A DNA stretch of 32,974 nucleotides, from contig JAITQT010000109.1 of NCBI GenBank assembly GCA_031288745.1, positions 1 to 32,974 on the forward strand. The letters are read 5' to 3'. Below the pieces are notes generated by a model. The model saw nothing but the letters and a program-made list of their open reading frames with translations. It searched no databases and was not told the origin of the DNA. A program made the position numbers and the translations under genes. Below are positions 3,093 through 21,935 of this stretch, one piece after another; within the stretch, counting starts at the first letter, position 1, and every line of letters begins with the position of its first letter. The stretch comes from Deltaproteobacteria bacterium. GTDB taxonomy: Bacteria; Desulfobacterota; Desulfarculia; Adiutricales; Adiutricaceae.

Positions 3093-4718
3093 TTGATCGT
3101 CAAAACCGACTATCTGGTTATAGGCACCGGCATAGCCGGGCTAAGTTTCGCTCTTAAGGCTGCTAAGACCGGCGAGGTGGCGATACTGGCTAAACACGAA
3201 GCCTATGACACCAACACTAATTTAGCCCAGGGGGGCATAGCCGCAGTCATGGGTGACGACGATCTGGTGGAATACCACGTTAAAGATACCCTCGACTCCG
3301 GTCAAGGCCTAAGTCACCTAGATATCGTCAAAGCGGTGGTCGAGGCGGGGCCAACGATGATAGAGCAACTAAACGATTTGGGAGTGCCCTTTACCACTAG
3401 AAACGGACGAGAGGACCTTCCAGAGTTGGGTCAAGAGGGAGGACACAGCCGCCGCCGCATTATCCACGCCAAAGATATGACCGGACAAGCGGTTCAAAAG
3501 ACTTTGGGGGAAAGGGCTAAGGAAAACCAAGCTATCAGCTTTTTCGAGTACCACCAAGCCCTCGATCTCATCTTAGCCGAAGGTGATTTAACTGATTCTA
3601 GACCTCGGGCCGTGGGGGCCTGGGTCTTAGACGTTAAAAGCAGTACCCTTAAGGCCTTTATGGCTAAAACCATCGTTTTAGCCACCGGAGGCTCAGGCAA
3701 AGTCTACCTCTACACCACCAATCCTGACGGGGCCACCGGCGACGGCTTGGCTATGGGCTGGCGATGCGGGGTTAAGGTGGCTAATTTAGAGTTCGTTCAA
3801 TTCCACCCTACCTGCCTCTATCACCCACAGGTTAAAAATTTTCTAATCTCAGAAGCCGTAAGAGGCGAAGGCGGTCGATTAATAGATAACGAAGGCCGAT
3901 TTATTATGAGCGGTCACCCCCAAGGCGATCTAGCCTGTCGAGACGTGGTGGCCCTAACCATTGACGCTAATATGAAAAAAAGCGGAGCTGAGCACGTCTA
4001 TCTAGATATCACCCATCGCGACCCTAGCTTTATCAAAGATAGATTTCCTAAAATATACCAAACCTGCTTCCGTTTAGGCATAGACATCACCAAAACGCCC
4101 ATTCCGGTGGTCCCGGCGGCCCACTACCAATGCGGAGGGTTAATGGTCGATATAAACGGACAAACTAACATTAATAACCTATACGCCATAGGAGAAGTGG
4201 CCTGCACTGGTCTTCACGGGGCCAACCGTCTGGCCTCAAATAGCCTTCTGGAAGCCTTGGTCATGGCCGATAGAGCGGCTAAAGATTCAAGTGATAAACT
4301 ATCCGCCATCGCCTCCCCACCAATAACTAATCTAGAGCCTTGGACCATAGGCCGCCTGGGCACAGCCCCAGCCGAAGCGGTGCTGATTTCTCAAAGCTGG
4401 GATGAGATTCGCCGCTTTATGTGGAACTACGTGGGCTTAGTTAGAAGCGATCAAAGGTTGATGATGGCCTTTAAGAGGCTCGAGCTAGTTAAAAGTGAGA
4501 TAGACGATTTTTTTAGAAACTTTGAGGTTGACGCCGACTTAGTAGAAGTTAGGAATATTGCCGCAGCCGCTGATCTCATTATCTGTAGCGCAGCTTTGCG
4601 CAAAGAAAGCCGCGGCCTTCACTATAGTTTATCGTGGCCCAATAGAGACGATCTTAATTTTGCCCGCGATACTATCTTAATTAATCACTCTCCCGATATT
4701 CGCCCCACTCCCCATTAA
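3093..4718 (+). CDS. nadB: L-aspartate oxidase
   Basis: 541-aa ORF with the N-terminal FAD fold DYLVIGTGIAGLSFA, plus RGEGG and HGANRLASNSLLE, typical of the NadB/succinate dehydrogenase flavoprotein family. The length fits NadB. TTG start preceded by GAGAGG. Confidence 0.88.
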   Translation: MIVKTDYLVIGTGIAGLSFALKAAKTGEVAILAKHEAYDTNTNLAQGGIAAVMGDDDLVEYHVKDTLDSGQGLSHLDIVKAVVEAGPTMIEQLNDLGVPFTTRNGREDLPELGQEGGHSRRRIIHAKDMTGQAVQKTLGERAKENQAISFFEYHQALDLILAEGDLTDSRPRAVGAWVLDVKSSTLKAFMAKTIVLATGGSGKVYLYTTNPDGATGDGLAMGWRCGVKVANLEFVQFHPTCLYHPQVKNFLISEAVRGEGGRLIDNEGRFIMSGHPQGDLACRDVVALTIDANMKKSGAEHVYLDITHRDPSFIKDRFPKIYQTCFRLGIDITKTPIPVVPAAHYQCGGLMVDINGQTNINNLYAIGEVACTGLHGANRLASNSLLEALVMADRAAKDSSDKLSAIASPPITNLEPWTIGRLGTAPAEAVLISQSWDEIRRFMWNYVGLVRSDQRLMMAFKRLELVKSEIDDFFRNFEVDADLVEVRNIAAAADLIICSAALRKESRGLHYSLSWPNRDDLNFARDTILINHSPDIRPTPH

Positions 4719-4722
4719 CGCT

Positions 4723-7305
4723 ATGAACCCTAATTTAGCTAACTTAGCTCCCCTTTCCAGGGCTAATCAAGAAATCAACGAGCCTAAGAGCCGCCGGACC
4801 TTCGTCGCGCTCACGGCCATCTTAATTTTAATAGCCTCTGCAGCTACGGCTTCTTTTTTCTACTTTCGCACTAAAGAACAAGCCGCTCTCACTGCTAACT
4901 CTTTAGCCCTACGTGAACGGGCTCTAAATAACCTCTGGGCCTGGGTAGGAGGCTCTGAAAATGGCTTAAAGCGAGGTCGCCCCCCCTTTCTGGCCACTCT
5001 TAAGGCTAGCGATGGGGCGGAGTCGTTATTAGGTCTGGGAGCCGAATATTTTCTAGAAAACCGCTTTGATTTGGCCTTAGCCGCTTTTGAAAAAGCGGCT
5101 AAAACTATCGGCCCTGACCCGCGGCTCTTAGCCTTACAAGCCGCAGCTAACCTTAGGCTGCTTAACTACGGCCGGGCCAAAGACCTTTACCAAGAGGCCT
5201 TGGCCCTTAGAAGCCCAGAAGATCAAAGTCTCGAACGGTCCTCCGAACACTTAGGCTTAGCCGTCAGCCTGTTTCATCAACCAGACCCCCAAGGGGCTCT
5301 TAAAGAGTCTATAGCCGCCCTCTCAATACGCTCTCGCATCCTCGGCCCCCACCATCCCGATACCCTAGCCGCTCTAAACGTGGAAGCCACCTCCCTTTTA
5401 GCCCTTAACCGGGCCCAAGAGGCGGGTGAAAAACTACTTAAAGCCGTAAACGATTCTTTAGCTCAAGGTCTAAACCTCAAAGAGCCGGTCTTATGGGATT
5501 GCCTAGGGATTCTAACCTTAGCCTACGAAACCCAAGATCGCTTAGCCGAGCTAACCCCTTTAATAAATTCTTTTAAATTAGCCCAAGCTGAACCAGAATC
5601 ACCACGAGAACAAACCCAGCCAGACCTAACAAAGGACTCGGGGCTAACCTCAGCCTTGGGCACAGAGCCTACCCTAGAAGAGGATTCGACCCTAAACACC
5701 TCATTACATAACTCAAATGTTACCCATAATAATTTAGGTGCTGATTTAAGCGCTCAAAATCCTCCCCTGCAAAATATACCGCCAGAGAACCTAAGGCCTG
5801 ATACCCCCAAATACCAAGAGGGGCTGGGGCCGCAGACTCCTACTAGCCCAAGCGCCTTAAGGGTTTTGCCCGCCTCCTTTGATCCAGACCTAGCCAGAAA
5901 GATCATCTCCGAAATCCCCCCCCTTTCTTTTTCCTCTGTTCGCCCAGCCTTGGCCCTAGCTCTCATTTCCAGCCTAACGGGCAACTCGGCTGCAGGAGGT
6001 CCCCCGGATTTGGAAACAATCTGCCGCTCGCCCGTGCCCGGACGGGCCCATGAGATTTTCGATCTGTGTTTAATCTTGGCCCAAGGCTTAGCCGCAGCCG
6101 AGGCCCAAAACGAAGCTCTAGCTATAGTGCGTTGGCTAACTATCTCTAGCGAAACAATCCCCGAGCAACTTAACCCCGAAAGCCTAATCGATCTGCGTTT
6201 GTTATCGGCCGTGCTTTGGCGCAATCTTAATAAATACTCTCAAGCCGAGCAAGATTACCGTAAAGTCCTCGAGTTACTAGATGGTGCGCCCCTAAAACAA
6301 GAAGATCTTGTTTCTAAAACTATCTTAGCCGGCTTGGGCCTATCAGATTCTTTATTAGAGCAAAATCACTTGCCCATAGAATCAGAGCTTGAGCTGACAA
6401 CCGTACTAACTAAGCTTAAAAGTCTTAAACTTAATAGCCCCTTTGAACAAAATTTATACGCCCCAATTTTACTAGCTCAGCTCGGCTTAGTGACCAAGGC
6501 CTCGGGCCGAGATAAAGATAGCCGCGCCTTTTTTAACCAGGCCCTTAAGAGCGCCGAAAGTCAGCTAGGCATAAATTTAGGGACCAGCCTAGAGCCATCT
6601 GCTAAGGAACCTAAAAAAATTGCCTCCAAGAGCCGCAAAAAAGGGAAAAAAAAGAACAGTGTCCAAGCTACCCCCCCGGCCCCAAAGGTACCGAACCAAA
6701 ATTGGCTCGATAACGAGCGCCGCGATTTTCTCACCTCTTTTCTCGATCGTTTAGCTCTAGCTAGTAATCTCTCGCGGCCTCGAGCGCAAAAAAGCAAAAT
6801 TTTCAACCAATTTTTTATCCCCAACCTCTCCCCTACCGACGACACTCCACCCCAAAGCCCGGAGATCATGCGTTTGGAACTAACGGCCTTAAAACTCTTA
6901 GGCCGAACCGAAGAAATCGAGCCGATGATAACCTCCGCTTTGGAGTATTACCAAAGTCGAGGAGGCTTTTACTCACCTCTCTATTTACGATATCAAAGCC
7001 TTTGGCTTAAATATTTAGAGGAAAGCGGCGATATAAACTCCTTGTTGGCCGCCCTCGATCAACTGGCCGCTAACCCTGGTTTTAACGACCCACGCAACAA
7101 TTTGACCTTTACTGTTTCAGCCTTAAAGTACAAGGCCAGAGTCCTAGAAAATGCTGGCTTGGGCACCCAAGCTTGGCAAACCCTAAATCATGCGGCTTAT
7201 TTAATTTCCGAGCAAGCCCATTTGGGTGATTTAGCCGCCCTAGCCTCCTCCATTCAAACTGACCTTGAGCGTCTAAAACCTCAAGAAATTCCCCAAAATC
7301 ATTAA
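4723..7305 (+). CDS. membrane-anchored TPR-like repeat protein, function unknown
   Basis: 860-aa ORF starting 5 nt after the nadB stop. It has an N-terminal TM segment (FVALTAILILIASAATASFFYF), Ala/Leu-rich TPR-like helices, a Pro/Ser/Thr-rich linker and a Lys-rich patch (KKIASKSRKKGKKKN). Confidence 0.7.
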   Translation: MNPNLANLAPLSRANQEINEPKSRRTFVALTAILILIASAATASFFYFRTKEQAALTANSLALRERALNNLWAWVGGSENGLKRGRPPFLATLKASDGAESLLGLGAEYFLENRFDLALAAFEKAAKTIGPDPRLLALQAAANLRLLNYGRAKDLYQEALALRSPEDQSLERSSEHLGLAVSLFHQPDPQGALKESIAALSIRSRILGPHHPDTLAALNVEATSLLALNRAQEAGEKLLKAVNDSLAQGLNLKEPVLWDCLGILTLAYETQDRLAELTPLINSFKLAQAEPESPREQTQPDLTKDSGLTSALGTEPTLEEDSTLNTSLHNSNVTHNNLGADLSAQNPPLQNIPPENLRPDTPKYQEGLGPQTPTSPSALRVLPASFDPDLARKIISEIPPLSFSSVRPALALALISSLTGNSAAGGPPDLETICRSPVPGRAHEIFDLCLILAQGLAAAEAQNEALAIVRWLTISSETIPEQLNPESLIDLRLLSAVLWRNLNKYSQAEQDYRKVLELLDGAPLKQEDLVSKTILAGLGLSDSLLEQNHLPIESELELTTVLTKLKSLKLNSPFEQNLYAPILLAQLGLVTKASGRDKDSRAFFNQALKSAESQLGINLGTSLEPSAKEPKKIASKSRKKGKKKNSVQATPPAPKVPNQNWLDNERRDFLTSFLDRLALASNLSRPRAQKSKIFNQFFIPNLSPTDDTPPQSPEIMRLELTALKLLGRTEEIEPMITSALEYYQSRGGFYSPLYLRYQSLWLKYLEESGDINSLLAALDQLAANPGFNDPRNNLTFTVSALKYKARVLENAGLGTQAWQTLNHAAYLISEQAHLGDLAALASSIQTDLERLKPQEIPQNH

Positions 7306-7445
7306 GCCCTCCCAACAAGCCCGCTCAAAAAAAAACTCGGCCAGCCGATAGTCAACCACCGCCGGCTAAAAACAAAAGCCCGCGCTGGTGTACTTTACTT
7401 ACGAAGATAACCTCCATTGCTGGTGCGGGGCTCATCTAGTCAGAG

Positions 7446-7479
7446 AACTTAATGGTGTTTATGATGCTTTCGGCTATCA
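7446..7479 (+). repeat. H-block short intergenic repeat (copy 2)
   Basis: AACTTAATGGTGTTTATGATGCTTTCGGCTATCA matches 2867-2900. The flanking sequence 7431-7475 also resembles the R 3' module (..TCAGAGAACTTAATG..). Confidence 0.5.
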
Positions 7480-7518
7480 AGTGTTATAGCTTAATTTTTG
7501 AAGCGTAAATAAACAGAT

Positions 7519-7562
7519 GCCCCCATAGGAATTACTCGTTCCTATGGGGGCAAATCTTTTTT
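7519..7562. terminator. strong hairpin, possible bidirectional intrinsic terminator
   Basis: Perfect 12-bp stem GCCCCCATAGGA (7519-7530) / TCCTATGGGGGC (7540-7551) with a 9-nt loop. A T6 run at 7557-7562 lies 5 nt after the stem on the plus strand, and a T-rich tail follows on the minus strand. Confidence 0.45.
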
Positions 7563-7708
7563 CCACCGCAGCAGGATCGCTCCCATGGTCGAGGCTCTTA
7601 GCCCTCGACCATTCTAATTCTAATCATAGCAGTTTCAAAAAGCAAGGCCTTTATTTTGTCTTGCTGTCCCTGTACCGCGAGTTATTCTGGGTACTGCAAC
7701 GAGTGTCC

Positions 7709-7961
7709 GTTCACAAAAGTGAACGTTGCGGTGCCAAGCCTATTGAAAGGGACGACAGATATCGCAACAATGTAGCCCCCTCTAGGAGCTTAGTAATTTT
7801 AACATTAATCAAAATTCAAATACATGGTTCAAGTCCCCTGGCTAAGTAGAAACCTCAGAAGAACTAATGTTAAGATCTTAAGGCGTATGCTAAAATTTAT
7901 TTACAACTCGAAAGTCGCTACCAGCCGCAACGTGGGGAAAAAAGACTTGGTGAACTATTAC
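7709..7961 (+). repeat. R-element copy 2 (only copy without a MITE insertion; candidate structured ncRNA or ORF-less mobile element)
   Basis: It runs from GTTCACAAAAGTGAAC to GACTTGGTGAACTATTAC. The 5' module (CCTATTGAAAGGGACGAC..CAATGTAGCCCCCTCTAGGAGCTTAGTAATTTTAACATT) and the 3' module are shared with the other copies. Internal helices are described in the findings. Confidence 0.75.
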
Positions 7962-8256
7962 AGATAATTTATTCAATCATCATTTGTATTGAATATGTAC
8001 TCATATTTTTGAACCTTGTCAGGATAGCGACCTACGTTGATTTCCAATTTTAAATAAGTGGGCTAGACCAATCGGTTTTGAATAGATGATAGGCTGATTG
8101 TAGCACTAAGGCGGCGTTTATAAGCAGTAGGTGAGCCATACTTAAGATAAGTCTCTCGAGGTCCTTAAATTTAAGGCAATACATCTGAACGAAGAAAAGC
8201 GTCGAAATATTTTTTTCACAGGTGATCGCTATACCCATAAAAAACTTTTAGACGAC

Positions 8257-10272
8257 CTAAGAATGGCTAGAATCGCGGCTTGCCAGTGCGGGATCTTTCT
8301 TTGACTTGGGTAGTCTAGTATCATAATAAGTTAAGATAGCCCGCCTAACCAGATCTTGGCTACTTAAATTAACCTGGCCTCCGTGAACTAACACAGCGGC
8401 AATAGCTAAGGCCCCGACCTTTTGGTTAACTGGCTCTGATTGGTCGTCTTGATTTAATTGTATTGATTCTTTATTCTCTATTTCTTCTCTTTTTTCATTG
8501 GGTTTGGCCCAGGCCACGAACCAGTCAACTTTAAGGCCTTGCGTGTCGTTTATGGTCCCGCTCTTGCCGCCTAAAGAAAGTCTAGAAAGGAGAGGATGAG
8601 CTGAGGCGTCGCTAAAGCGTTTGCGGCCAGTTCCTTCGTTAACCGCAGCCATCATAAGTTCGGCTAATTCCTCAGCTGTTTTTTCCGCAACCACCTGGCG
8701 GGCAAGCTTAGGTTTACCTAAGTAAACTAAGTTTCCTTGAGAGTCGGAGACTTCGGAGACCACGTTGGGCTCAAACATCCGCCCTCCGTTAGCCACGGCG
8801 GAAGCCATTAAAGCTGCATGCACGGGGGTAAGCATAGTTTGCCTATTAAAGCCTGAGGCCAGTTCGGCCAAGCGAAAAATTTTTTTCTTTTCTTGATCCC
8901 ATTCCTCATCGCCATCGTTAATTCCCTCTCCTGGCTTTTCCATAGCTTGCTCTAAGCCTAGTTCAAAGGTCGAGGTCTCTAAAGGCAACTCGAAACCAAG
9001 CGTTTCGTTAAAGCCAAAGCGGAGGGCGTAATCGGAGAGATCCTGCGGGTTGAGGGTATAGGCCCCAAGCTTACCAAAAACAGTGTTGATGCTCTGGGCG
9101 AAACTCTGCCTTAAAGTGGCCTTGTGATTACCGCTATCAGGCTCTTTTTTTAGATTAGACATATAGAGGGTGTGCTTCCCCCCATCGTAGAGCACCTCTG
9201 AACGGGCTGAAAGCAAGGCCTTTTCAACTGCCGCAGCTGCAGTGACAATCTTAAAAACTGAAGCGGCTGGAAACGAGCTTTCTAAGGCGGCGTTCGTTTC
9301 AGTTTCCACATTCCTTCCGGCTAAAGCCAATACCCGTCCGCTTTGGGGATCAACCACCACCAAGGCCGCTTTTTGGGCCCCGCTATGCTCAACCCACCTA
9401 AGCGCCTTGGCTTGAAGGTCGGCGTCTAAAGTGGTCTTAACGTACAAAGTGCCGCCCTCGTCTTCCACGGCCAGGGGAGCGTTATTATCAGCTGATAGCC
9501 TGACGGGCCCGATTAAAGAGGCTAGTTGCTCTTTATTAACCAAATGGGCTGGCTTAGGTGGAGGACTCAAAAGGCCCACCAAAGGCGCGGGGCTGACGGC
9601 TTCCCCAACGGCTGGGGTACTATTGGCCCTTGGCTGGAAAAAATTAGCCAAGAGGTTTTGAGCCAAAGGCTTAACTTGGTTAGAAGCGATATTAGCGAAA
9701 AAAAAGGAATTAAAGACCAAGGCCTCGGGTCTTTTATCAATTTGAGGGCCAAAGTACAACGTAAGGGTACAAGAACCTAAAATAAGAGTTAAAATCGAAA
9801 TATTTTTAAAAAAATGAAAAATTGAAAATTTTTTATTAGTTTTTCGGGGCTCTAAAAAAATGGGGGCCTCGGCGCTGACGGCCTTATTATGGTTTACATT
9901 TGGCGCTATCGGGAAACTAGTAGGCTCTATAGGTAAGGCCACGGATTTATTTTCAGGGGAAAAATGGACCCGGCTCACAAAGACAGAGTCGCTGGCCTTA
10001 ACCATGGGCTTGGCCTTAACCATGGGCTTGGCCTTAAAAAGGGGTTTAAGGCGATTTTTTAAGGCTAGTGTGGTTAGCTCTTGCTCCTCGGCCCCTCTCT
10101 TAGCCCGGCCCAACCACTGGGGAAAGACTTCTTTAGATTTTTTTGAGTCCTTAGGCTCAGATGCCTTAGGGAGTTTAAAATCAAAAACCCCTTTGCCGAA
10201 TTCAGATCGGACCCCTAGGCCCGAGGTTAACGGGGCCTTATCCTTAAAATCTATACGGTCGGAAGGGTTCAT
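8257..10272 (-). CDS. penicillin-binding protein, transpeptidase type, with a long N-terminal cytoplasmic extension
   Basis: 671-aa ORF with SxxK (SVFK), SxN (SIN) and KSGT motifs in the correct order. It has a single TM (ILTLILGSCTLTLYF) after about 150 N-terminal residues. No glycosyltransferase motif was seen. Confidence 0.8.
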   Translation of the reverse strand: MNPSDRIDFKDKAPLTSGLGVRSEFGKGVFDFKLPKASEPKDSKKSKEVFPQWLGRAKRGAEEQELTTLALKNRLKPLFKAKPMVKAKPMVKASDSVFVSRVHFSPENKSVALPIEPTSFPIAPNVNHNKAVSAEAPIFLEPRKTNKKFSIFHFFKNISILTLILGSCTLTLYFGPQIDKRPEALVFNSFFFANIASNQVKPLAQNLLANFFQPRANSTPAVGEAVSPAPLVGLLSPPPKPAHLVNKEQLASLIGPVRLSADNNAPLAVEDEGGTLYVKTTLDADLQAKALRWVEHSGAQKAALVVVDPQSGRVLALAGRNVETETNAALESSFPAASVFKIVTAAAAVEKALLSARSEVLYDGGKHTLYMSNLKKEPDSGNHKATLRQSFAQSINTVFGKLGAYTLNPQDLSDYALRFGFNETLGFELPLETSTFELGLEQAMEKPGEGINDGDEEWDQEKKKIFRLAELASGFNRQTMLTPVHAALMASAVANGGRMFEPNVVSEVSDSQGNLVYLGKPKLARQVVAEKTAEELAELMMAAVNEGTGRKRFSDASAHPLLSRLSLGGKSGTINDTQGLKVDWFVAWAKPNEKREEIENKESIQLNQDDQSEPVNQKVGALAIAAVLVHGGQVNLSSQDLVRRAILTYYDTRLPKSKKDPALASRDSSHS
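9993..10037. repeat. 18-bp tandem repeat x2.5 inside the PBP gene
   Basis: TGGCCTTAACCATGGGCT occupies 9993-10010 and 10011-10028, followed by a partial unit at 10029-10037. It encodes KAKPMV KAKPMV KA in frame. Confidence 0.9.
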
Positions 10273-10452
10273 AACTACCTAAATTCTATCACCGACTATC
10301 ACAAAGAGGTCTAAATAGGCATGCAAAAGTGCTAAAATTTTTTGCTTTCTGGTTAAATATTTATTTTAAAAATTTAAACTAAACTTTCTTCCTATTTAGG
10401 TAAATAATATTTAAATTAAACTATTTTCACTATTAATTATTTTAATATTAGA

Positions 10453-11733
10453 CTAATTAGTTAAAGCCCTAATGACTTCTTGCCCGCCCAGAAACGATCT
10501 TAAGACTTTGGGTACTTCAATTGAGCCGTCTTCTAGTTGGTAGTTCTCTAATATGCTCACTAAAGTCCTACCAACGGCTAAACCAGACCCATTAAGGGTA
10601 TGGACGAACTCGGGTTTACCTTTTTCTCTGCGATACCTAATATTGGCCCGGCGAGCCTGAAAGTCCCCAAAACAAGAGCACGAGGAGATCTCTCTATAGA
10701 CTCCTGGGCCTGGCAGCCAGACCTCCAAATCGTAAGTCTTAGTTGAGCTAAAACCCATATCCCCTGTTGAGAGGAGCACCACCCTATAGGGTAGTTCCAA
10801 TCCTTTGAGAACCTCTTCGGCGTCTTGGGTCAGCTTTTCCAGCTCCTGGGAAGAATGTTCTGGTTTAGAAAATTTTACCAATTCAACTTTATCAAACTGG
10901 TGCATGCGGATCATGCCCCTCGTATCGCGTCCAGCCGCCCCGGCCTCGGCCCTAAAGCAAGGGGTGTAGGCGGTTAAATAAATCGGCAGTTTACTCTCTT
11001 CAATAATCTCGTCACGCAATAAATTGGTTAGCGGCACCTCAGCCGTGGGAGCTAGCCAAAGATCGTTATTTTCAACTTTAAAACCATCTTCGGCAAATTT
11101 TGGCAACTGTCCTGTACCACGCATGGATTGGGAATTTATCAAGGCCGGAGGCCAGATCTCGAGATAACCGCTATTTTGGGTGTGGAGATCGAGCATAAAA
11201 TCAATTAAAGCCCGATTTAATTTAGATAAGGCTCCGCGTAAGACTACAAATCTAGCCCCAGAAATCTTGGCCGCTGAGGTAAAATCCATTAAGCCTAAAC
11301 GCTCCCCTAGTTCCCAGTGATTTTTGGGCTGGAAAGGAAAATCCCTAATTGTTCCCCAGCGCCTAACCTCAAAGTTGGCGCTCTCGTCGCCCACGGGCAC
11401 CTCGCTCAAAGGTAGGTTGGGAATAGAAAGCAAAATCTCTTTTTCTTTTAGTTCAACTTGTGTTAACTGAGGCTCTATCGATTTAATATTTTGAGAGATT
11501 AAACGGTTCTCCGCAATCAAAACATCAGTCGACTCCCCGCTGCGTTTAAGCTCTGCCACCTTATCGCTTTGCTTATTTAGCCGAGCCTTAAGCTCTTCGA
11601 CTTTTAAAAGCAAATCCCGCCTTTGTCGATCTAAGAACTCAAAGGATTCCAAGGGCGCAACAGCGACGCGCCGATTTATCAAGGCCTCTTTGACGACGGA
11701 GAGGTTATCGCGTACGAATTTTAAATCTAACAT
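10453..11733 (-). CDS. serS: seryl-tRNA synthetase
   Basis: 426-aa ORF with an N-terminal coiled-coil arm (MLDLKFVRDN...) and a class II core (FRAEAGAAGRDTRGMIRMHQFDKVE, GSGLAVGRTLVSILENYQ). Confidence 0.95.
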   Translation of the reverse strand: MLDLKFVRDNLSVVKEALINRRVAVAPLESFEFLDRQRRDLLLKVEELKARLNKQSDKVAELKRSGESTDVLIAENRLISQNIKSIEPQLTQVELKEKEILLSIPNLPLSEVPVGDESANFEVRRWGTIRDFPFQPKNHWELGERLGLMDFTSAAKISGARFVVLRGALSKLNRALIDFMLDLHTQNSGYLEIWPPALINSQSMRGTGQLPKFAEDGFKVENNDLWLAPTAEVPLTNLLRDEIIEESKLPIYLTAYTPCFRAEAGAAGRDTRGMIRMHQFDKVELVKFSKPEHSSQELEKLTQDAEEVLKGLELPYRVVLLSTGDMGFSSTKTYDLEVWLPGPGVYREISSCSCFGDFQARRANIRYRREKGKPEFVHTLNGSGLAVGRTLVSILENYQLEDGSIEVPKVLRSFLGGQEVIRALTN

Positions 11734-12148
11734 CGAGTTATGTTCCCCAAAGGCCTAAATATTAAAAGTCTAAGATCGGACTAGCGCGCCCGAAAGGGCA
11801 AGCTCATAACCGAATAAAAGAACCTAGGCCAGAATCAGACTAGGCTCAAGATAGAGCTTAGGCTAAAAAAAGGAGCGGCCAAGCAAGGTAAGATTTTAAC
11901 TCTTAAGATCGAGTACGTCAAGATCTATTGGCCTTAATTCTTTGAATTGCTTTATTATTCAGCATTTAATTTCGAAGCCGGGTCAAATAAACCACTAGGC
12001 GGCTAAAGCCATGGTAATTTATTTTACATATGCCGATATTTTAATTTACGCTTATAGTCAAAATAAAAATTAGTAAAATTTTTTACTAACATACATTAAA
12101 CTATATAAAACATATTTTTTAGACTTAATTAGCTAGTTTTTTTCAATT

Positions 12149-12715
12149 TTAAGTGACTATATTATAGAGTCCCGGCTTTCTAGCCGGAGGTTTAGGCAAA
12201 TCCCTTTCTGGAAAGCCCAGACAAGCCGAGCCAATCACTCTGTAATCGTGGGGAAAGCCAAGGCTAGTTAAATAGGATCTAAAATCAGGCTCGTCAGCCG
12301 CGCTAGCCACCTGATTAATCCAGCAGCCGCCTAAGCCCACCACGTGGGCGGCCAAAAGCAGATAGCCCAAAACCAAGGCCCCGTCCTCCACCGGCCAATA
12401 AGAATCTTTTCTATGGGCCCCCACGATCACGAAGACCGGGGCAGTACCAAAATTTACGCTATAGGCTTTATTGGAGACTACTTCCTTATAAAGGTCAAAA
12501 CCAGGCTTCTGGACAGCCTCCCGAAGCTTTAGGGTGAACTCTGAGATCCTATCTAAGCCGATTACAGCCGTAGCGTGCCAGGCTTGCGTACCCCTGGCCG
12601 TGGGGGCGTAGCTAGCCGCATCCAACACCTCTTTTAAAAGCTCATCTGGCACTGAGAGTGGTTTAAAGACTCTTACGCTACGCCGCTCAACTAGCCATTT
12701 AAGATCTTTGTTCAT
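12149..12715 (-). CDS. nitroreductase family protein
   Basis: 188-aa ORF. The N-terminal RRSVRVF, SYAPTARGTQAWH and the overall length are typical of the NADH/FMN nitroreductase fold. Confidence 0.75.
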   Translation of the reverse strand: MNKDLKWLVERRSVRVFKPLSVPDELLKEVLDAASYAPTARGTQAWHATAVIGLDRISEFTLKLREAVQKPGFDLYKEVVSNKAYSVNFGTAPVFVIVGAHRKDSYWPVEDGALVLGYLLLAAHVVGLGGCWINQVASAADEPDFRSYLTSLGFPHDYRVIGSACLGFPERDLPKPPARKPGLYNIVT

Positions 12716-13101
12716 AATTAATACACCTCATTACTTTAAAATGTTAGCGCTCCTTACGAAGGGTTAAGCGGCCCTTTAAAGCATCTGCGCTTATTAGTCT
12801 AATCTCAACTTTATAATCCATAACCTAAAATAATCTATCATTTTTTTTACTTATTCGCCAATACCCTCATACGTTACCCTACCACAGCCTGGGTTGCTCC
12901 AAGCCACATTAGCCAACTTTGATAGAAGGAAGAAACGTTTTAAAAACTTAATCGCCTAAAAAATTAACCTTTCTAACAACCCTATCTCCCACCGCCTTGG
13001 GGGCCAAAGGGTTAAATAGACCTCGCTAGGTAAAAAAGTAAGGCTAAAGGCTTTTGATTTTAATACACCAAACCCGAGATAATAAAATTAAATGTTATTA
13101 T

Positions 13102-13211
13102 TGAGCGAAGCGCAAAAAGTCCCCTTTATCAGTCTTTAAATTTGTAACATAGTCTTATCACTAGTTAATTTTTTAGACTATTGTGCTTTTAAGAGGTTTT
13201 TGCGCTTCGAT
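13102..13211 (+). mobile_element. 110-bp MITE copy a
   Basis: Terminal inverted repeats GAGCGAAGCGCAAAAA / TTTTTGCGCTTCGATC. Flanked by a perfect 6-bp direct repeat ATTATT (13096-13101 and 13212-17). Confidence 0.8.
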
Positions 13212-13661
13212 CATTATTTTATTTTTTTATTCTTATCAAAGATAAATTTACTAGCCAACCTACTCGTAAGTTTCTTCGTTAACGATAGGGGCAGATTACA
13301 GGCTAATCGAATCTCACTAATTTTAGCACCGGCTACCAGAGCTGTCAAAGCTCCGGCCAGAGCGGCCTATGACCTAACCAGCGGTTTTCTCCCTCCTCAG
13401 GGGCAAAAGACCTAAATGATAGTCTCCAAAGCAGCTCCCATGGAGGTGATTTTGGCAGTTAAGACACCCGCTCCGACTACTCCCCAATGATACTACCGGT
13501 GATTTTAGCAGTGGTGGTCATCTCGAAAAATCGTTTGTTTATTAATCAAGGCCTTTGGTTTTATCATAATCCAGCACCTTGAGCTTTTAAGAAACAAGGC
13601 CTACCCCAGAAGATTGAAGAGCATTTAGGGCCACTCCATAAAAATATTGATAACCACACTT

Positions 13662-13771
13662 GATCGAAGCACAAAAAGTCACCTTTATGAGTCCTTAAAT
13701 TTGTAACAGGGCCTTATTACTAGTTAATTTTTTAGACTACTTTGCTTTTAAGGGGTTTTTGCGCTTCGATC
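13662..13771 (+). mobile_element. 110-bp MITE copy b (inside the IS110-family pseudogene)
   Basis: TIRs GATCGAAGCACAAAAA / TTTTTGCGCTTCGATC. Flanked by a perfect 6-bp direct repeat ACACTT (13656-61 and 13772-77). About 87% identical to copy a. Confidence 0.8.
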
Positions 13772-13819
13772 ACACTTAAGCCTAGGATAAGGTCCAAAAC
13801 CTACGAGCTATCAAGCCCC

Positions 13820-14548
13820 AACCATTACAAGCTCACAAACTCTTTATCATGGTAGGTTTTAACCTCTCACTGGGTTGCTGATAACATTTTTGGGACCAAC
13901 TGCCAAATGATTATCGCAGGACTAATTACGAAAAAAACCCGAATGAGACCTTAAGAATTCTACAGTTAGTTAGCGCCTTAAGGCTTCAAAACAATTAGTA
14001 TTATAAAGGCCCAAATAGGGAAATTGGCTGGTTAAGTCTGTGAAGATATTACAGAAATGTGTGAAAATAATCTCGTATTTACGAGCAAAATTGATACGCA
14101 TGAGCTAGGACTTGCACGTCGCATGATTAAGAGCGGCTTAGAGACTAAATTAGATCTTTTCCAGGCCATTAACTGAGTATCGTTCAAAGCCGCTCTGAGC
14201 CTTCTAGCTGAACTTAGCGATGATTGGTCGAATTTTCGTTGGGCTAATGCCTTGTTGAATTGGGGTAGAAAGAACTCGGGCCACAACGAGTTGACGGGTA
14301 AAAGAAAGAGTGGCCAAAAGTTAAAAGGCAATAAGCACCTAAGAAGGATTTTAGGCGAGATAGCCCAGCTGACCGCGAGAACTTAGTAGTATTTTAAACA
14401 AAAACTACAAAATCTAAAGCTAGGAGACGAGGCGACCAGAGGCTATTGAGCTGTTGGTCATAAAGTGCAGATAGCCGTTTATATCGTTCTACTAAAGGCA
14501 ATCCTTACCAAGACAATAAGGTTGAGTACGACGCTCTGGTAGCCAAGA
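13820..14548 (+). pseudogene. IS110-family (DEDD / Transposase_20 type) transposase pseudogene, C-terminal two thirds recognisable
   Basis: The frame from 14102 reads ..LFQAIN*VSFKAALSLLAELSDDWSNFRWANALLNWGRKNSGHNELTGKRKSGQKLKGNKHLRRILGEIAQLTART**YFKQKLQ..AVGHKVQIAVYIVLLKA. This has the IS110 hallmarks (LLAE.gD..rF, sG......KrGNkhLRr.L, A.ArKl...iy..Lk). In-frame stops lie at 14174, 14384, 14387 and 14447. Weaker frame-shifted similarity (GTNCQMIIAGLI, ETLRILQLVSALR) extends up to about 13820. Confidence 0.65.
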
Positions 14549-14792
14549 AAAATGCTTTGCTCTGGAGAAAGAACCTTAAGAAATAACATCTGGTCTCTTC
14601 TGAAAATAAATTTAGTAATTATAGAAGATAACTAACTTTATTAGGCTCAGATTAAGGCGCAGGCTAATAACCTAAGCTATGAACATTAAGTAGTCTACTC
14701 TGAATCGCCAGCAGTGGTAGCCATGGATAGTCTCAAAGCATCATTAAACTACTTTGGTAACGGGTTTTTTGGAGTTTTATCTTGGCCCACTT

Positions 14793-15108
14793 GTAACCGT
14801 TCACCAAGTCTTTTTTCCCCACGTTGCAGCTAGTAGCGACTTTCGAGTGGTAATTAAGTTTGATCGAAGCGCAAAAACCTCTTAAAAGCACAATAGTCTA
14901 AAAAATTAACTAGTAATTTGGCTATGTTATAAATTTAAGGATTGATAAAGGGGACTTTTTGCGCTGCGATCAACTTTGATTTAATGTTAAAATTACTAAG
15001 CTCCTATAGGGGGCTACATTGTTTCGGTTTGTGTCGTCCCTTTCAATAGGCTTGGCCCCGCAACGCTCTCTATTGTGAACGGGCCCTTAAACGTTCACAT
15101 TGGTGAAC
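14793..15108 (-). repeat. R-element copy 3 (carries a nested MITE and an internal deletion)
   Basis: The plus strand reads GTAACCGTTCACCAAGTCTTTTTTCCCCACGTTGCAGCTAGTAGCGACTTTCGAG.. then the MITE, then ..AATGTTAAAATTACTAAGCTCCTATAGGGGGCTACATTG..GTTCACATTGGTGAAC. The ends GTTCACCAA (14799-14807) and TTGGTGAAC (15100-15108) are perfectly complementary. Confidence 0.75.
14862..14971 (-). mobile_element. 110-bp MITE copy c (nested in R copy 3)
   Basis: TIRs GATCGAAGCGCAAAAA / TTTTTGCGCTGCGATC. The 6-bp flanks differ by one base (AAGTTT vs AACTTT). Confidence 0.8.
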
Positions 15109-15252
15109 TACACGCCCACTTTATCCATAGTTGAGGGATAGATTAGCTAACTATAAGTTTTTTCTATTTTTTCTTATCTATAGCTGAGTCATTTTTAGGG
15201 CCAACACTCTCAAAGCCGTGGAGGTTTGCTATGATTGTGCCGTGATACCAAG

Positions 15253-16875
15253 CTACTCGTAAGGTTCAGCCACAGGGTGATCGAAGCTTTGGATTAAAGG
15301 GACAGATGGGGCCTCGGGGGCCTTGACTTTAGGCTGAGCTTTAAAGGGGTCTAGGTTAATTTGCTCAATAGGCCACACTTGCGGCCACATTGGATGAGGC
15401 CTAATATTAGAGAGTCTTTTATCAATTAACATATCAAAGGTTTTTTGATACAACATGACGTAGGGCCGTTTTTCCAAAGCGTAAACGTTTAACCGCCTTA
15501 ATAAACTCTCTCTAGTCATATTATTTTGAGTCGAGAGGCCCTCTATCAGCTGGTCAACTTGAGAGTCGTTAAATCTGGCCGGATTTGATTTAATAGTGGC
15601 CCGCGAATCTAAAAACCCGCCTAGCCACATCTCGGGGCTTGGATACTCGGGCCGCCTAAAATCCAGTAACATATCCCAATCTCCCTTTTCCAAGATTCCC
15701 TGACCGTGAGCCCCACTAAGGGGGACTAACCTTACCGCTAGCCCGTGGGCAGATAGCTTAGAGGCTAGGACCTCCGCATCACTCCGCCCCGATGGGTCGT
15801 CGGCCTGGTAGACTAAATCTAGCGGTATCCGGGAGGGCCCTAAAGTAGAAAGTAACTGAACCGCTCTTTTTTCCAACTCGGCCGCCGAGGGGGGGGCCCC
15901 GACCGGTAGGCTTGGGGCTAAGCCGGCTGGGAAAAAACCGACCGGCTTTACTCTTTCCCCGCTAAGAGATAAAGCCGAAGCGGCTAAATCAGTAATTAAC
16001 TCTCTAGCCCCATCCATTTTTAGATAAGGCCTTAAGAGATTAAAAGCCAAAAATTTAGTCTCAAAAGATGTTACCTTAATTAATTCAAAGCGATTATCTA
16101 GCGGAGAAGTATATTGGGGCTGCCAAGCCAAGTGAGCCTGGTTTTCAATAAATAAGGCGTACCGTTTTTGTGGATCTTCGTTATAATAGAACTCAATTCG
16201 ATCGAGTTTGGGAATTACCTGGGCATCGGAGCGAATTTTTAACTTTATTAGTGTAGGTTCAACAGAATCGACCTCAAAGCCCCCAGAGCCTAAACTATGC
16301 TGGTCTAAATAGCCCGAGGGCCGGGCGGACAGAGAAGGACTAATCAAAGAAGCCATAGGCGAGGTTAGAGAGGCTAGAAAGGGGGGCCAAGGAGAATCTA
16401 GGCGGAATCTAAAAGTATGGGGCCCTACAATCTCAAAAAACTTTAGCCTCGGAAAATAAATGCTTCCGGTTTGGGTGCTCATTAAGCGATCAAAACTATA
16501 AAGAGCGGCGTAACTATCTAAGAGCGTTCCGTCTGGAAAACTTTGACCTTCCTTAAGGATAAAGGTATAGAGCAAACCATCTTCGGAGACTCTATAAGTG
16601 GCTGCGGCCGAATTTTTATTGTCGAGCACCGAACTTGCGGGCTCGAGATCAAATAGACGGCGATAGCAGGTCATGATCACGGGCCAGGCTGCGGGGTCAG
16701 GAGGGTAGCGCTGGGGGTCTAGGCTGACCGGGGCCTTAGGGTAGACCAGCCTTAAGGCATCGGCCCAAATTAAGTCTTTAGGGCTGAAAATCAAAAAAAG
16801 GAGTAAAAAAAAAAGCGCTCCCTTAGATGGCTTAAATTTGGTTTGAGCTTTGCTTATTAGTCGGCTATGGTCCAC
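15253..16875 (-). CDS. ABC transporter substrate-binding protein, family 5 (peptide/nickel type), orphan
   Basis: 540-aa ORF with a GTG start, an N-terminal hydrophobic signal-like segment (ALFFLLLFLIFSP) and family-5-like stretches (LDPQRY.., FELIKVTSFETKFLAFNL). No permease or ATPase genes are adjacent. Confidence 0.7.
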   Translation of the reverse strand: MDHSRLISKAQTKFKPSKGALFFLLLFLIFSPKDLIWADALRLVYPKAPVSLDPQRYPPDPAAWPVIMTCYRRLFDLEPASSVLDNKNSAAATYRVSEDGLLYTFILKEGQSFPDGTLLDSYAALYSFDRLMSTQTGSIYFPRLKFFEIVGPHTFRFRLDSPWPPFLASLTSPMASLISPSLSARPSGYLDQHSLGSGGFEVDSVEPTLIKLKIRSDAQVIPKLDRIEFYYNEDPQKRYALFIENQAHLAWQPQYTSPLDNRFELIKVTSFETKFLAFNLLRPYLKMDGARELITDLAASALSLSGERVKPVGFFPAGLAPSLPVGAPPSAAELEKRAVQLLSTLGPSRIPLDLVYQADDPSGRSDAEVLASKLSAHGLAVRLVPLSGAHGQGILEKGDWDMLLDFRRPEYPSPEMWLGGFLDSRATIKSNPARFNDSQVDQLIEGLSTQNNMTRESLLRRLNVYALEKRPYVMLYQKTFDMLIDKRLSNIRPHPMWPQVWPIEQINLDPFKAQPKVKAPEAPSVPLIQSFDHPVAEPYE

Positions 16876-16885
16876 TCACCGCACC

Positions 16886-17287
16886 TCACATATAAAAAAG
16901 GGAAGGCCCTAGGGCACCGAGGCCCCAAATAAAGATACTATAAATAAAAAAGCCAAAAAGAAAGACCCAGGCGGCTAAAAAACAAAATATCTCCTGCCCC
17001 TCCAAGCGTTCATACATCCCCCTTAAGGCCTCTAACCAACGAGCCCGCCAAGGGCTTAAGAGCACAAAGAGGGCGGTCGTTAGCGGGGCCAGGAAAAGAA
17101 AAATGGTCCTTTCCCTTAAGAGATAATATTTTTTATAGACCCCCGTCTCATTAATTAAAACGAAAAAACCAGCTATTAAAAATAAGTAAACCGCATGCCA
17201 GCGCAAAAATTGGTTAATTCTCTTATTTTCAGCAAAGCTTAGGTCGAATAAACGCATAAACCAAAGGCTCCGTGAACCTGGGGGCAT
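16886..17287 (-). CDS. small integral membrane protein, function unknown
   Basis: 133-aa ORF with 3-4 predicted hydrophobic helices. It ends 10 nt upstream of the SBP start on the same strand. Confidence 0.5.
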   Translation of the reverse strand: MPPGSRSLWFMRLFDLSFAENKRINQFLRWHAVYLFLIAGFFVLINETGVYKKYYLLRERTIFLFLAPLTTALFVLLSPWRARWLEALRGMYERLEGQEIFCFLAAWVFLFGFFIYSIFIWGLGALGPSLFYM

Positions 17288-17681
17288 AAGTTTTGTGGAG
17301 ATCTTTTTAACCTAGTGAAACTTTTCCAACTGAAAATTTAGCGAGAAAAATAAACTTAACGGTTTTATTATACGATAAAATCTAGGACCTAGCCAGGTTA
17401 AAATTCGAAGCTTTAATCGCTAAGACTTATATAGATATTTTTATTCAAATTTATGATCTTTTATTGATAATTAAAAATCTCTCCTCGATCGCTTAAGCCT
17501 AAAAAACTAAGCCCTTAAGCCCTCCTAGGGCTTTGGCTAGTAAATCTTTTTCGGCTAAGGTGAAAAAATAAACCCCAATCTATTGGCCTTTATATTGCAA
17601 AGATTTAAAATCGTCCAAAGAGGTGCCAATTTTTCCACCCCTCGGCTCTATCACTGGACTATGTAACGCGAGGCCTTAACC

Positions 17682-19532
17682 ATGTCTGAAGAAAACAAAA
17701 ATCAAGAGGGTGCCCTACCCGTTTTAAGCACCGATGAACTAACTGAGGCCCAAGAGCGACCTAGCCCGGCTCAAATGCCCGAAAACGCCCCTTCAAAGAG
17801 CGAAAACAACTCTATAGAAGCTAGCTCGGCGCAATCACCAACTGGCTTTAGGAGCTTTGATCGGGTCCAAGAAGCGGAAAAAGCCCTTGAAGATAGCCTA
17901 ATGGGAGCGGCACCTAGCCAAAGTTTTAGCCCCACCATCCATAGCGGCTCAGACTCTGTAGCCGCCCTGGCCCTTTCGCCTCCAGGAGGGCTCATCGGCG
18001 CAAGCTCTCAAAACGCTTTCTTTAACGCGGCTAGCCAATTTTTTTCTCATCTAGCAAAATTATGGAAGCGCATTCCTCCCTTAGAAGATATCTTCGACAT
18101 GCTGCTAGCCGCTGCAGGCTTTCAACGCAAACCAGCCGGCATGCTGCGCCGGGCTCAGCAATTAGCGGCCAAAGGCCGTAACGCCGACGCCATCAAGTGG
18201 TATAGGGATATACTTTATTTAAGACCCCTTACGGTAGCGGCCTACGACGGACTGGGGAGAGTGTATTTTAGGATGGGCTTGATGGAGGAGGCTAATCGCG
18301 AGTTTACTATCGCCGACTCTATAGAGCGCTTGGTTAATAACCGAGACGATCTCGACGCAGCTTGCTCGCTATCTAAAGCGTTAATTGAGCGAAAACAAGC
18401 TAAAATGGCCGCGTCTCTACTTGAACCGGTCCTCATAGCCCACTTTTACACAGCCCATAACAGTGAGCTTTTAAAAAAGATGGGCTTACTATACGCCGAA
18501 CTTAGGCAGACCAAAAAGCTCTACCAAGTCTACGAGGCCGGTCTACTTCAGCATCCAGAAGATCACGAATTCTACATCCTTAAAGGAAACCTTGAAATAA
18601 AACTAGGGCGAACGGCCGAAGGCGAAAGGCTCATCCGCTGGGGTAAGCTCATGGCTAGACTCAAGGAAAATCCAACCGACGTTAACGCCAACATATCTTT
18701 TGGCGAATTGTGCCTTAAAGAAAATAAAACTGTAGAAGGCCTAAATCACCTTAGGGAAGCGGCCACCTTATCTCCAGAAAACACGGGCATCCGCTGGCGT
18801 TTGTTTAACATTTATCAAAAGCAAAATAACTATAACGAAGCCTTGCGCTATTTTCTAGAAGTCGTCAATATCGAACCAGAAAACGAGGAACTTAAATACA
18901 AACTAGCTGACTTTTACCGCCGCAACCGTCATTTTGATGAAGCGCTTGATATTTACCGCTCTCTTAGCGCCAAACATCCTCGCCAACCCAGGCCTAGGGC
19001 CATTATGGCTACCCTTTTAACGGATATGGGAAATTTTGAGGAGGCCCAAAATCTTAAAGCCTTAGCCGACACCTTGACTATAGGTCTTAAGCCCGAGCCG
19101 GATCATCACGAAACAGTAACTTTCATGAAATACCTTTTTAGCATCAATCAAACCGATGAGGCCATGCAATGGCTTAATCGGGGCTTATCGAAATGGCCGT
19201 ACCACGGCGAACTTATCATTACCAAAGTCAAAATTCTCTATAACGAATATCGCTATAAAGAAGCAGTAAACCTCCTCAAACGCCTAATCAGTGTCAAGCA
19301 CGACATGGCCGAGCCTCACATGTGGATAGCCTTATGTTACCAAAGGCTCGGTAATCATATGGCCGCTCTAGCCGAAGCGCAGCTAGCTACTCGCCTAGCG
19401 CCCAAGAGCTTTACGTCCCACAAAGTCCTAGGCGATATTCTTAAAGAACAGAAAAAAATTAGTCAAGCCAACGCCGCCTACGAGGTGGCCGACATGATCC
19501 GGCTAACCCATGCCAAAGCCGCCAACGGCTAG
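17682..19532 (+). CDS. tetratricopeptide repeat protein
   Basis: 616-aa ORF with a low-complexity N-terminus followed by many 34-residue TPR-like units (e.g. AIKWYRDILYLRPLTVAAYDGLGRVYFRMG, ALRYFLEVVNIEPENEELKYKLADFY). Confidence 0.75.
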   Translation: MSEENKNQEGALPVLSTDELTEAQERPSPAQMPENAPSKSENNSIEASSAQSPTGFRSFDRVQEAEKALEDSLMGAAPSQSFSPTIHSGSDSVAALALSPPGGLIGASSQNAFFNAASQFFSHLAKLWKRIPPLEDIFDMLLAAAGFQRKPAGMLRRAQQLAAKGRNADAIKWYRDILYLRPLTVAAYDGLGRVYFRMGLMEEANREFTIADSIERLVNNRDDLDAACSLSKALIERKQAKMAASLLEPVLIAHFYTAHNSELLKKMGLLYAELRQTKKLYQVYEAGLLQHPEDHEFYILKGNLEIKLGRTAEGERLIRWGKLMARLKENPTDVNANISFGELCLKENKTVEGLNHLREAATLSPENTGIRWRLFNIYQKQNNYNEALRYFLEVVNIEPENEELKYKLADFYRRNRHFDEALDIYRSLSAKHPRQPRPRAIMATLLTDMGNFEEAQNLKALADTLTIGLKPEPDHHETVTFMKYLFSINQTDEAMQWLNRGLSKWPYHGELIITKVKILYNEYRYKEAVNLLKRLISVKHDMAEPHMWIALCYQRLGNHMAALAEAQLATRLAPKSFTSHKVLGDILKEQKKISQANAAYEVADMIRLTHAKAANG

Positions 19533-20239
19533 AGCTAGAAAAAAATGACCCTGCAAGTCACTAAGTTTTTTTAGTTAAATATCGCGATAAGACTTATTTA
19601 CTCAAATATTATAAATTTTGGCCTCAACTCTAATGGCTTAAAAATTTATTGGCCAGAAAAAACTTAGCCTCAGTCGAAAAAACGTTACCCGGCTCAATTA
19701 TTCATTTTGGCCTTTCTTTTAGGTAGCCTTGTGCCTCAGAAAGGCTTATGGGGCTTGGTCATAGCTTGTATTTTTTTTTCCAATCTGAGCTCCCAAACTA
19801 GCTCTTAAATTCTCCGTTGCTTTTTTTTCCTCTTTATTCTTTCTTATTCCCCCATTTAGTTATCCTGTTTGGTCTTGGGCTAGATAGAAATCTATCTATT
19901 TATAACTATTTGTAATTTTAGACTTTTTCAACTTAAGCTAATTAAAAAGAAATACTGGCCACCCTATTTAAAGAGCGGCCGGGCGAGATAAATGATTTTT
20001 GGGGCCTTCAGCTTAAAAACAAAAAAACTTAGTTTCAATCTGCTCTTTTCAATATTTTTGTCTCGCCATCCAGGCTTTTGAGAGAAGGGTTAAAATTTCA
20101 GAGCTATAAAAGTTAAATTTAGAGACCTTTCTATTTCAGAAACTTTTGGCGCAATATTTTTAAACCAAATTGATTGTTTACTCCAAAAAAGTTCTTCTAC
20201 TGTCTTGGGAGTCTAGCTTTTTCGTATTTATAAAAAAAC

Positions 20240-20268
20240 TTGATCTTTCTCACAAGTCTTGATAAAAT
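20240..20268 (+). promoter_or_regulatory. sigma70-like promoter candidate
   Basis: TTGATC (20240-45), a 17-nt spacer, then TAAAAT (20263-68), about 345 nt upstream of the IHF-like ATG. Such matches occur easily by chance in AT-rich DNA. Confidence 0.2.
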
Positions 20269-20612
20269 AAAAAAAATTAAAATTTAGACTTTTTTCTTCG
20301 GGCAAATCCAAAAGCATTTTTCTATTATTTTAAAAAAAAATCGCTTTATTTAAACGATCATTTGTTCATCGCCCGATTGATCGGTTTGTGTAAAAAAACC
20401 AAGTTTTAAATTAAAATACGAAGATACGTATGGAACCTATTAATCCCTACTCTTTTCATGTTTTATTTTTTAACTTACGGGAACTAACACCATTCGACCA
20501 CACCATCGGCCCTCCACCTCCGAACGGCCCGAAATTACTCTCGCAGTTTTTTCGGACCATCTACCGCTTAGACTCCTCTTATCACCTCATTTGTCTTAAA
20601 AGGCGGCTCAAA

Positions 20613-20954
20613 ATGACAATAACTAAGGAAACCATCATCAGGAGAATCAGTGAAAAAACTGGTTTTAACCGCCAGGACTCCAAACTGGCTGTGGAAAAAC
20701 TCTTGGATATCATGTACAACACCCTCTCGGGCGGAGAAAACCTTTTAATTTCAGGGTTTGGTAAATTTAAAGTTCTCTCCAAGAACGCTCGCTTGGGCCG
20801 CAACCCCCACACCATGGAAGAGATTAAACTTCAGGCCAGAAAAGTCGTCACTTTCAAACCCTCTGAAACTCTTAGGCTAAAGACTAATCAGCACCCTATG
20901 TCCGAGCCCTTAGAATCGGAATCGGAAGATGATTTTGACTTTTTGTATAAATAA
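20613..20954 (+). CDS. ihfA: integration host factor alpha-like DNA-bending protein (HU/IHF family) with an acidic C-terminal tail
   Basis: The 113 aa from ATG 20613 contain the HU/IHF signature (GFGKFKVLSKNARLGRNPHTMEEIKLQARKVVTFKPSETL). The 61 codons upstream in the tracked ORF have no family similarity. The tail ESESEDDFDFLYK is extra. Confidence 0.8.
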   Translation: MTITKETIIRRISEKTGFNRQDSKLAVEKLLDIMYNTLSGGENLLISGFGKFKVLSKNARLGRNPHTMEEIKLQARKVVTFKPSETLRLKTNQHPMSEPLESESEDDFDFLYK

Positions 20955-21353
20955 TTAGTCTAAAAACGTATGTTTTAAGGCTTTATCGAATAAGGCATCT
21001 ACTAGAACCTTTATTAATTTTTTGCGTATCTAAAGTTAGCAAACGAACGTTCATATGATTTTAGCCTCGTTACTCATAAAGTTAAATTATTTTATAAAGT
21101 TAGGCTCATCGACTCACTCAAATCCCCATTCCAAATCCAAAAATAGCCTCCCTTCGTTAAAATCGTCTCCCGTAAAAATTTTATATTAATACATCTTCTG
21201 GCGATTTTAGTAAATTTTCGCCTAAGGTCGCCCCAGCTTCCTCTTAACCACAACGTCAGCCTTACGGCTACTCGGAAGCAAATTAAGTGGACCAAAGCTC
21301 TTGAGCAATTTGGCGTGCGCCTTAAAATTCAGGGCTAACAATCTGTGAAAAGA

Positions 21354-21747: not shown

Positions 21748-21842
21748 CGAGACTAGCTGTAAGCATCTTAGCCTTTGGCTACCACTCCTGCGGTGACGCC
21801 TAGAAAGAACTTTCACTGCGTAAGTTAGCCTAGCGTCCCTTG

Positions 21843-21883: not shown

Positions 21884-21935
21884 CTACGTTTAAAACTTAA
21901 ACAAACTATTCAGCTTTTAGAGTCTATCTGTGTTC

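Follow-up and report, generated by a model that had tools for sequence, protein, structure and literature searches.

Insertion sequences of the IS66 family have inverted repeats of 20-30 bp that start with GTAAGCG, together with direct repeats of 8 bp (PMC11946415), and the terminus GTAACCGTCCGGGCA occurs in some members of the family (PMC12888890). The R repeats, which we describe here in the window (the whole stretch of 32,974 nucleotides that was analysed), are ORF-less units of 100-400 bp that are bounded by terminal inverted repeats (TIRs) and occur in multiple copies in the intergenic spacers of a repeat-rich genome. In these respects they resemble bacterial MITEs, such as MITEPsy1/2 of Pseudomonas syringae (PMC3189936), the Cardinium MITE (PMC9769881) and the QMITEs of Coxiella (PMC5896051). 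They have no sequence similarity to any described MITE, and their mobility is read from sequence. The right end of R starts with GTAACCGT, compared to GTAAGCG or GTAACCGTCC in IS66 members, and an 8-bp duplication, seen in R at the copy c3, is common to both. Unlike the IS66 family, R carries no tnpA, tnpB or tnpC, its repeats are imperfect and about 15 bp long instead of 20-30 bp, and its left end reads GTGTY, not GTAAC.

Also comparable are the omega RNA/HEARO transcripts (IscB, TnpB) and the bridge and seek RNAs, the latter belonging to the IS110 family (IS110/IS1111). Like them, R is non-coding, a few hundred nucleotides long and linked to mobile DNA, with a sharp 3' boundary, but it differs in lacking an adjacent nuclease or recombinase gene, an Rfam match and covariation, and in possessing TIRs and an 8-bp duplication. 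R is a previously undescribed repeat family; an earlier note on this DNA had recognised no known family in it, and we likewise find that no described family matches. The reading that we favour, at a probability of about 0.75, is that of a decaying, ORF-less MITE family that is derived from an insertion sequence, probably with an IS66-type parent, in a mobile-element-rich genome.

Copies, boundaries and ends of R

The family comprises five copies in the 33-kb window, with 81-90% pairwise identity over 160-256 common columns, which is far above chance. Repeat search, MAFFT alignment, self-BLAST and an nhmmer search with a profile of the copies (E 1e-34 to 1e-85 for the five) recover the same five sites in the same orientations and no sixth in the window. 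The five-site non-coding repeat proposed in the earlier note is thus confirmed together with its orientations, while the coordinates given there needed revision, the left ends reaching 5-6 nt further and the first copy spanning 59-223 instead of 1-223. On the left, the boundary is found 5-6 nt beyond GTTCAC and reads GTGTCC, GTGTA, GTCTCG or GTGTTC. At the other end, a well-conserved 3' module of about 85 nt stops sharply at GGTTAC. Frame checks agree with the earlier claim that R is non-coding: all five copies are intergenic, they have no reading frame in common, and stops are present in every frame. Once nested inserts are subtracted, R measures 239-290 bp and contains no transposase ORF, and a 101-aa ORF overlapping the second copy has no Pfam match.

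The sole intact copy is c2 (7703-7961, + strand, 259 bp), which is located between convergent genes and has both ends present, with GTGTCCGTTCACAAA as the left inverted repeat (IRL) and GTAATAGTTCACCAAG as the right one (IRR, reverse complement). The other four are damaged, each differently. The partial copy c1 (59-223, + strand) consists of the 3' two-thirds only, as delimited by the alignments and by the nhmmer profile (positions 94-257, E 2e-51); its right end as reverse complement is GTAGCCGTTCACC, and bases 1-58 of the window are unrelated to R. In c3 (14793-15113, - strand, 321 bp; IRL GTGTAGTTCACCAAT, IRR as reverse complement GTAACCGTTCACCAAG), a central part of R, about 100 nt long, is deleted and a 110-bp MITE of a second family is nested at 14862-14971. 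Another copy of this MITE, at 21512-21621, splits c4 (21354-21753, - strand, 400 bp), which holds the most complete R sequence. In copy c5 (21930-22168, + strand, 239 bp), the 5' module is shorter by about 35 nt and the right inverted repeat has a 1-nt insertion; c4 and c5 are inverted relative to each other, their left ends facing across a 176-nt spacer. An extra 28-nt GTTCAC-N4-GTGAAC unit is found at the left end of c3 and c4. The R copies of 320 and 400 nt are longer because the 110-bp MITE has inserted into c3 and c4, so the size range of 250-400 nt put forward earlier is an artefact of these nested elements, combined with the loss of about 100 nt in c3. These independent deletions and insertions give the pattern of decaying DNA.

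The TIRs of R are imperfect, with GTGTYCGTTCACMAA on the left and GTAACCGTTCACCAAG on the right, read inward. The complementarity of the two ends, already seen in the earlier note, holds up: the 9-bp core GTTCACCAA matches at 9/9 positions in c3 and at 8/9 in c2 and c4, and is interrupted by the 1-nt insertion in c5. The right terminus is GTAACCGT in c3, c4 and c5, GTAGCCGT in c1 and GTAATAGT in c2, and the left terminus, GTGTYCGT, departs from the right one at positions 3-5 (GTGTY vs GTAAC). Complementary ends had been taken to fit either TIRs or a closing helix in a large RNA. Of these two readings the first is supported by the imperfect TIRs, the 8-bp duplication at c3 and the relatives that lack R; the second finds no support, and the variation in the would-be helix is uncompensated. 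Its variable position is C in c3 and A in c2, c4 and c5, opposite an invariant G, and the insertion in c5 has no counterpart on the other side.

Both ends of c3 are abutted exactly by the 8-mer GCCCACTT, which is read directly on the + strand at 14785-14792 and returns at 15114-15121 with 8/8 matches. The chance of any perfect 8-mer is 0.0016 in a simulation of four R copies that allows 27 boundary registers per copy. A target duplication was not found at c2, c4 and c5 (2/8, 2/8 and 1/8 matches), so that one of the four complete copies has such a duplication. In this respect R resembles genuine IS insertions, a substantial share of which have no direct repeats (PMC3189936, Table 4). That the duplication has survived at c3 alone would be explained if c2 and c4/c5 had recombined, c3 being situated inside conserved synteny.

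The copy status in the genome is indicated by two Logan short-read contigs of the same organism (SRR14710895) that carry exact copies of window proteins. One of them (L001) is 100% identical to window positions 7926-13131, with one end 36 nt within c2 and the other 29 nt within the first free-standing 110-bp MITE; the other (L008) corresponds to about 15500-21383 and ends 30 nt inside c4. Contigs that end inside R and inside the 110-bp MITE are the expected behaviour of a k-mer assembler at repeats, which indicates that both families are multicopy in the genome. Exact patterns of the 3' and 5' modules gave no further R copy among the matches listed for genome contigs and none in metagenome contigs, and the 5' module pattern gave none in viral contigs. 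Likewise, no real match to R was found by blastn in plasmids and phages, and the stop-free six-frame peptides of R, concatenated, had no match at E<=10 in a database of 5.8 billion proteins. Since no more copies were found in the collections searched, all statistics on R rest on five copies.

Origin of R and alternative readings

As members of a decaying MITE family, the R copies would be insertion-sequence derivatives with internal deletions and no ORFs. A DDE transposase encoded outside the window may bind the 15-16 bp TIRs (IRR GTAACCGTTCACCAAG, IRL GTGTYCGTTCACMAA) in trans, and an 8-bp staggered cut at each new site would then generate the 8-bp target duplication. Both the length of this duplication and the sequence of the ends suggest a parent in the IS66 family. 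R is read as an IS66-type non-autonomous element because its right end shares GTAACCGT and the c3 duplication measures 8 bp, a direct repeat of the IS66 type being present in c3 alone. The match of the right end to IS66 inverted repeats fades after about 10 nt (10/15 to GTAACCGTCCGGGCA, 10/18 to GTAAGCGTCCGGCGAACT) and the left end deviates at positions 3-5, so the assignment to IS66 appears less certain than the assignment to MITEs. Neither an autonomous parent IS nor an IS66 gene was found within the 33-kb window. The R copies would be old and look inactive, given their identity of 81-90%, their deletions, the doubled end unit and the nested second MITE. They may also have acted as recombination substrates, c2 being located at a three-gene deletion and c4/c5 at a synteny break. 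If R is derived from IS66, it would represent a modest addition to MITE catalogues.

A TIR-bounded, non-autonomous element could also descend from another 8-bp-duplicating family (ISL3, IS256, IS6 or IS1595) or from an undescribed one, the shared GTAACCGT then being coincidental. The confinement of the IS66-type terminus to one end of R, the rapid fading of the match and the absence of an IS66 gene from the window would suit such a parent, but we consider it unlikely: the GTAAGCG/GTAACCG starts and the 8-bp direct repeats of IS66 fit R, and the typical termini of the other 8-bp-duplicating families start with GG, unlike those of R. More difficult to reconcile with a MITE is the 3' module, whose conservation exceeds what a TIR alone would require. 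Together with the sharp stop at GGTTAC, this conservation could instead reflect a multicopy structured ncRNA gene, whose product, a guide scaffold of the omega/HEARO kind or a bridge/seek RNA, would work with a nuclease or recombinase encoded elsewhere, and whose ends would pair as a closing helix. The earlier note leaned towards such a guide or scaffold RNA. A weak sigma-70-like TTGARA-17-AACAAT in c2 and c5 and an IS110-family transposase remnant about 200 nt from c3 are compatible with this proposal, though the former is not above shuffle expectation, and the promoter-like and terminator-like matches in R are altogether at that level. The remaining evidence makes an RNA gene very unlikely. 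Rfam 15 yields no match at the gathering threshold in the whole window or at E<=10 for R, and the MFE is no better than that of dinucleotide shuffles for c2 and c5 on both strands (z +0.22, -1.71, +0.61 and +0.13, with one weak exception). RNAalifold, run on the alignment without the nested MITEs, gives a consensus of -1.38 kcal/mol in which 0 of 18 pairs are compensatory, at the low power that five copies afford, and the antisense consensus fold is weak (-8.4 kcal/mol). The closing helix is contradicted by the uncompensated changes described above, and four of the five copies (c1, c3, c4 and c5) are broken, unlike genes under selection. No IscB or TnpB ORF is adjacent to any R copy; a search of the neighbourhoods for IscB, TnpB and IS110 genes came out empty at c1, c2, c4 and c5 and gave only the degraded Transposase_20 remnant near c3, which is outside the duplication-bounded unit. 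To our knowledge, IS605 and IS110 elements make no TIRs and no 8-bp duplications, so that the TIRs and the duplication of c3 are foreign to them. We see no support for a new guide or scaffold RNA in R, which is accordingly removed from the candidates for such RNAs.

Two further proposals combine R with other functions or elements. The MITE could in addition be transcribed into a functional RNA from the 85-nt 3' module, for example a guide or regulator that a recombinase or nuclease encoded elsewhere in the genome would use in trans, with GGTTAC marking a junction functional in RNA or in DNA and not just a transposon end; this we hold to be highly improbable. The other proposal concerns the IS110 remnant, a pseudogene at about 14080-14590 (+ strand) that retains the C-terminal part of the transposase with a frameshift and several stops (Pfam Transposase_20, E 1e-6, in a scan of spacer translations that covered the + strand of 12716-14800). 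Its N-terminal DEDD domain is not detectable, and a word-indexed search with the stitched translation returned no homologue. IS110-family elements often target repeats, e.g. REP sequences or MITE ends for many IS110/IS1111 members, and R might have been a preferred landing pad of this kind for an IS110-family element to which it is otherwise unrelated. The distance of about 200 nt between the remnant and c3 is in keeping with this, but the remnant is neither in R nor at its edge, the other four R copies have no IS110 neighbour, and the dispersal of R itself would be left unexplained, which renders the proposal scarcely credible. The 195 nt between the remnant and c3 are unrelated sequence, and the remnant lies outside the target duplication of c3; it goes back to an insertion of its own into this spacer.

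Two other models of R were considered and rejected. R as the non-coding end of an IS110 element is incompatible with c3 being a complete TIR-bounded unit whose own 8-bp duplication excludes the remnant, and with the other copies lacking such a neighbour. In the case of an IS200/IS605 PATE, the GTTCAC-N4-GTGAAC hairpin is present at one end only, and IS605 elements are not known to make TIRs or duplications.

A 110-bp MITE family and the genomic context

The second MITE, unrelated to R, is 110 bp long with 17-bp TIRs (GATCGAAGCGCAAAAAG) and about 87-92% identity between copies. Two copies are free-standing (13103-13212 and 13662-13771), two are nested in c3 and c4 as described above, and a possible fragment is located at 12915-12968. 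Matching A/T-rich duplications of 6 bp flank three of the four copies (ATTATT, ACACTT and, for the copy in c4, AACATT), while the flanks of the copy inside c3 are near-matching (AAAGTT/AAACTT). MITE activity in this genome is independently shown, because a textbook 110-bp MITE has entered R twice.

The genes around R are those of an ordinary bacterial chromosome. The window encodes, according to Pfam, a class-III aminotransferase, an OTCase, an L-aspartate-oxidase-like flavoprotein, a transpeptidase, an SBP_bac_5 protein and the type IV pilus proteins PilX, PilW and PilY1; SerS and the nitroreductase were assigned from gene tables of the same stretch. The closest SerS proteins, at 67-72% identity, belong to MAGs that carry the label Deltaproteobacteria bacterium or Candidatus Adiutrix, the termite-gut symbiont lineage that includes the nearest named relatives of the host genome. 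Gene order is kept in two related loci, L002 and L003 (HU, TPR, small ORF, SBP, nitroreductase, SerS, PBP), and in L007 (SerS, PBP, FMN_red, NfeD, Band_7, TPR, NadB-like, ArgF, ArgD), whereas serS is flanked by other genes in the Adiutrix loci L005 and L006. Both R and the 110-bp MITE are absent from about 100 kb of these relatives' loci (L002-L007) by blastn and nhmmer; the orthologous spacers are covered in L002, L003 and L007, and at 67-72% SerS identity these represent distant relatives, not same-species empty sites.

The spacer between SBP_bac_5 and the nitroreductase extends over 2.5 kb here (12716-15252), about ten times its length of 168-300 nt in L002 (8448-8747) and L003 (8711-8877), and contains c3, two copies of the small MITE and the IS110 remnant. 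The mobile debris amounts to about 1.05 kb, i.e. less than half of this spacer. In L007 (GCA_031278635.1), the genes for FMN_red, NfeD and Band_7 are located between PBP and TPR at 3666-5970, where the window has a 950-nt spacer with c2 (7306-8256); no remnants of the three genes were detected in the window by tblastn. The c4/c5 pair is positioned at a synteny break between the conserved block and the pilus genes.

For annotation, the main yield of the window is two undescribed MITE families, R and the 110-bp element. They occur, together with an IS110 remnant, in a deltaproteobacterium that is uncultured and related to Candidatus Adiutrix. The repeats lengthen intergenic spacers, coincide with the three-gene deletion and the synteny break, and fragment short-read assemblies, a familiar pattern where mobile elements proliferate in host-associated bacteria or in bacteria with eroding genomes. 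As a separate observation on the Candidatus Adiutrix loci, L005 (3910-9051) and L006 (3587-8204) contain multi-kb stretches near serS with no or tiny called genes and no homologues of R or the small MITE. Such gene-poor stretches would fit a clade whose genomes are eroding and rich in pseudogenes.

Several minor features of the window were also recorded. Upstream of c2, a perfect hairpin with a 15-bp stem and T-runs on both strands (7518-7552) forms a bidirectional intrinsic terminator between the convergent genes. It is this terminator hairpin, not R, that accounts for a sub-threshold Rfam match to Cyano-2 at 7426-7590 (22 bits vs a gathering score of 40). Its arm CCCCCATAGGA resembles the internal R sequence CCCCCTATAGGA, probably by chance. 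Two AT-rich regions of 470 and 900 nt (224-690 and 19533-20429) have no ORF of at least 80 aa and carry scattered GGCC and TTAA motifs. None of the repeat families in the window matches them, and they may be eroded genes or regulatory regions. The HU-family ORF at 20430-20954 (+ strand) encodes 174 aa, compared to 102-143 aa in relatives, with the Pfam domain beginning at residue 65. Its true start is probably internal, or else the N-terminus is a lineage-specific extension.
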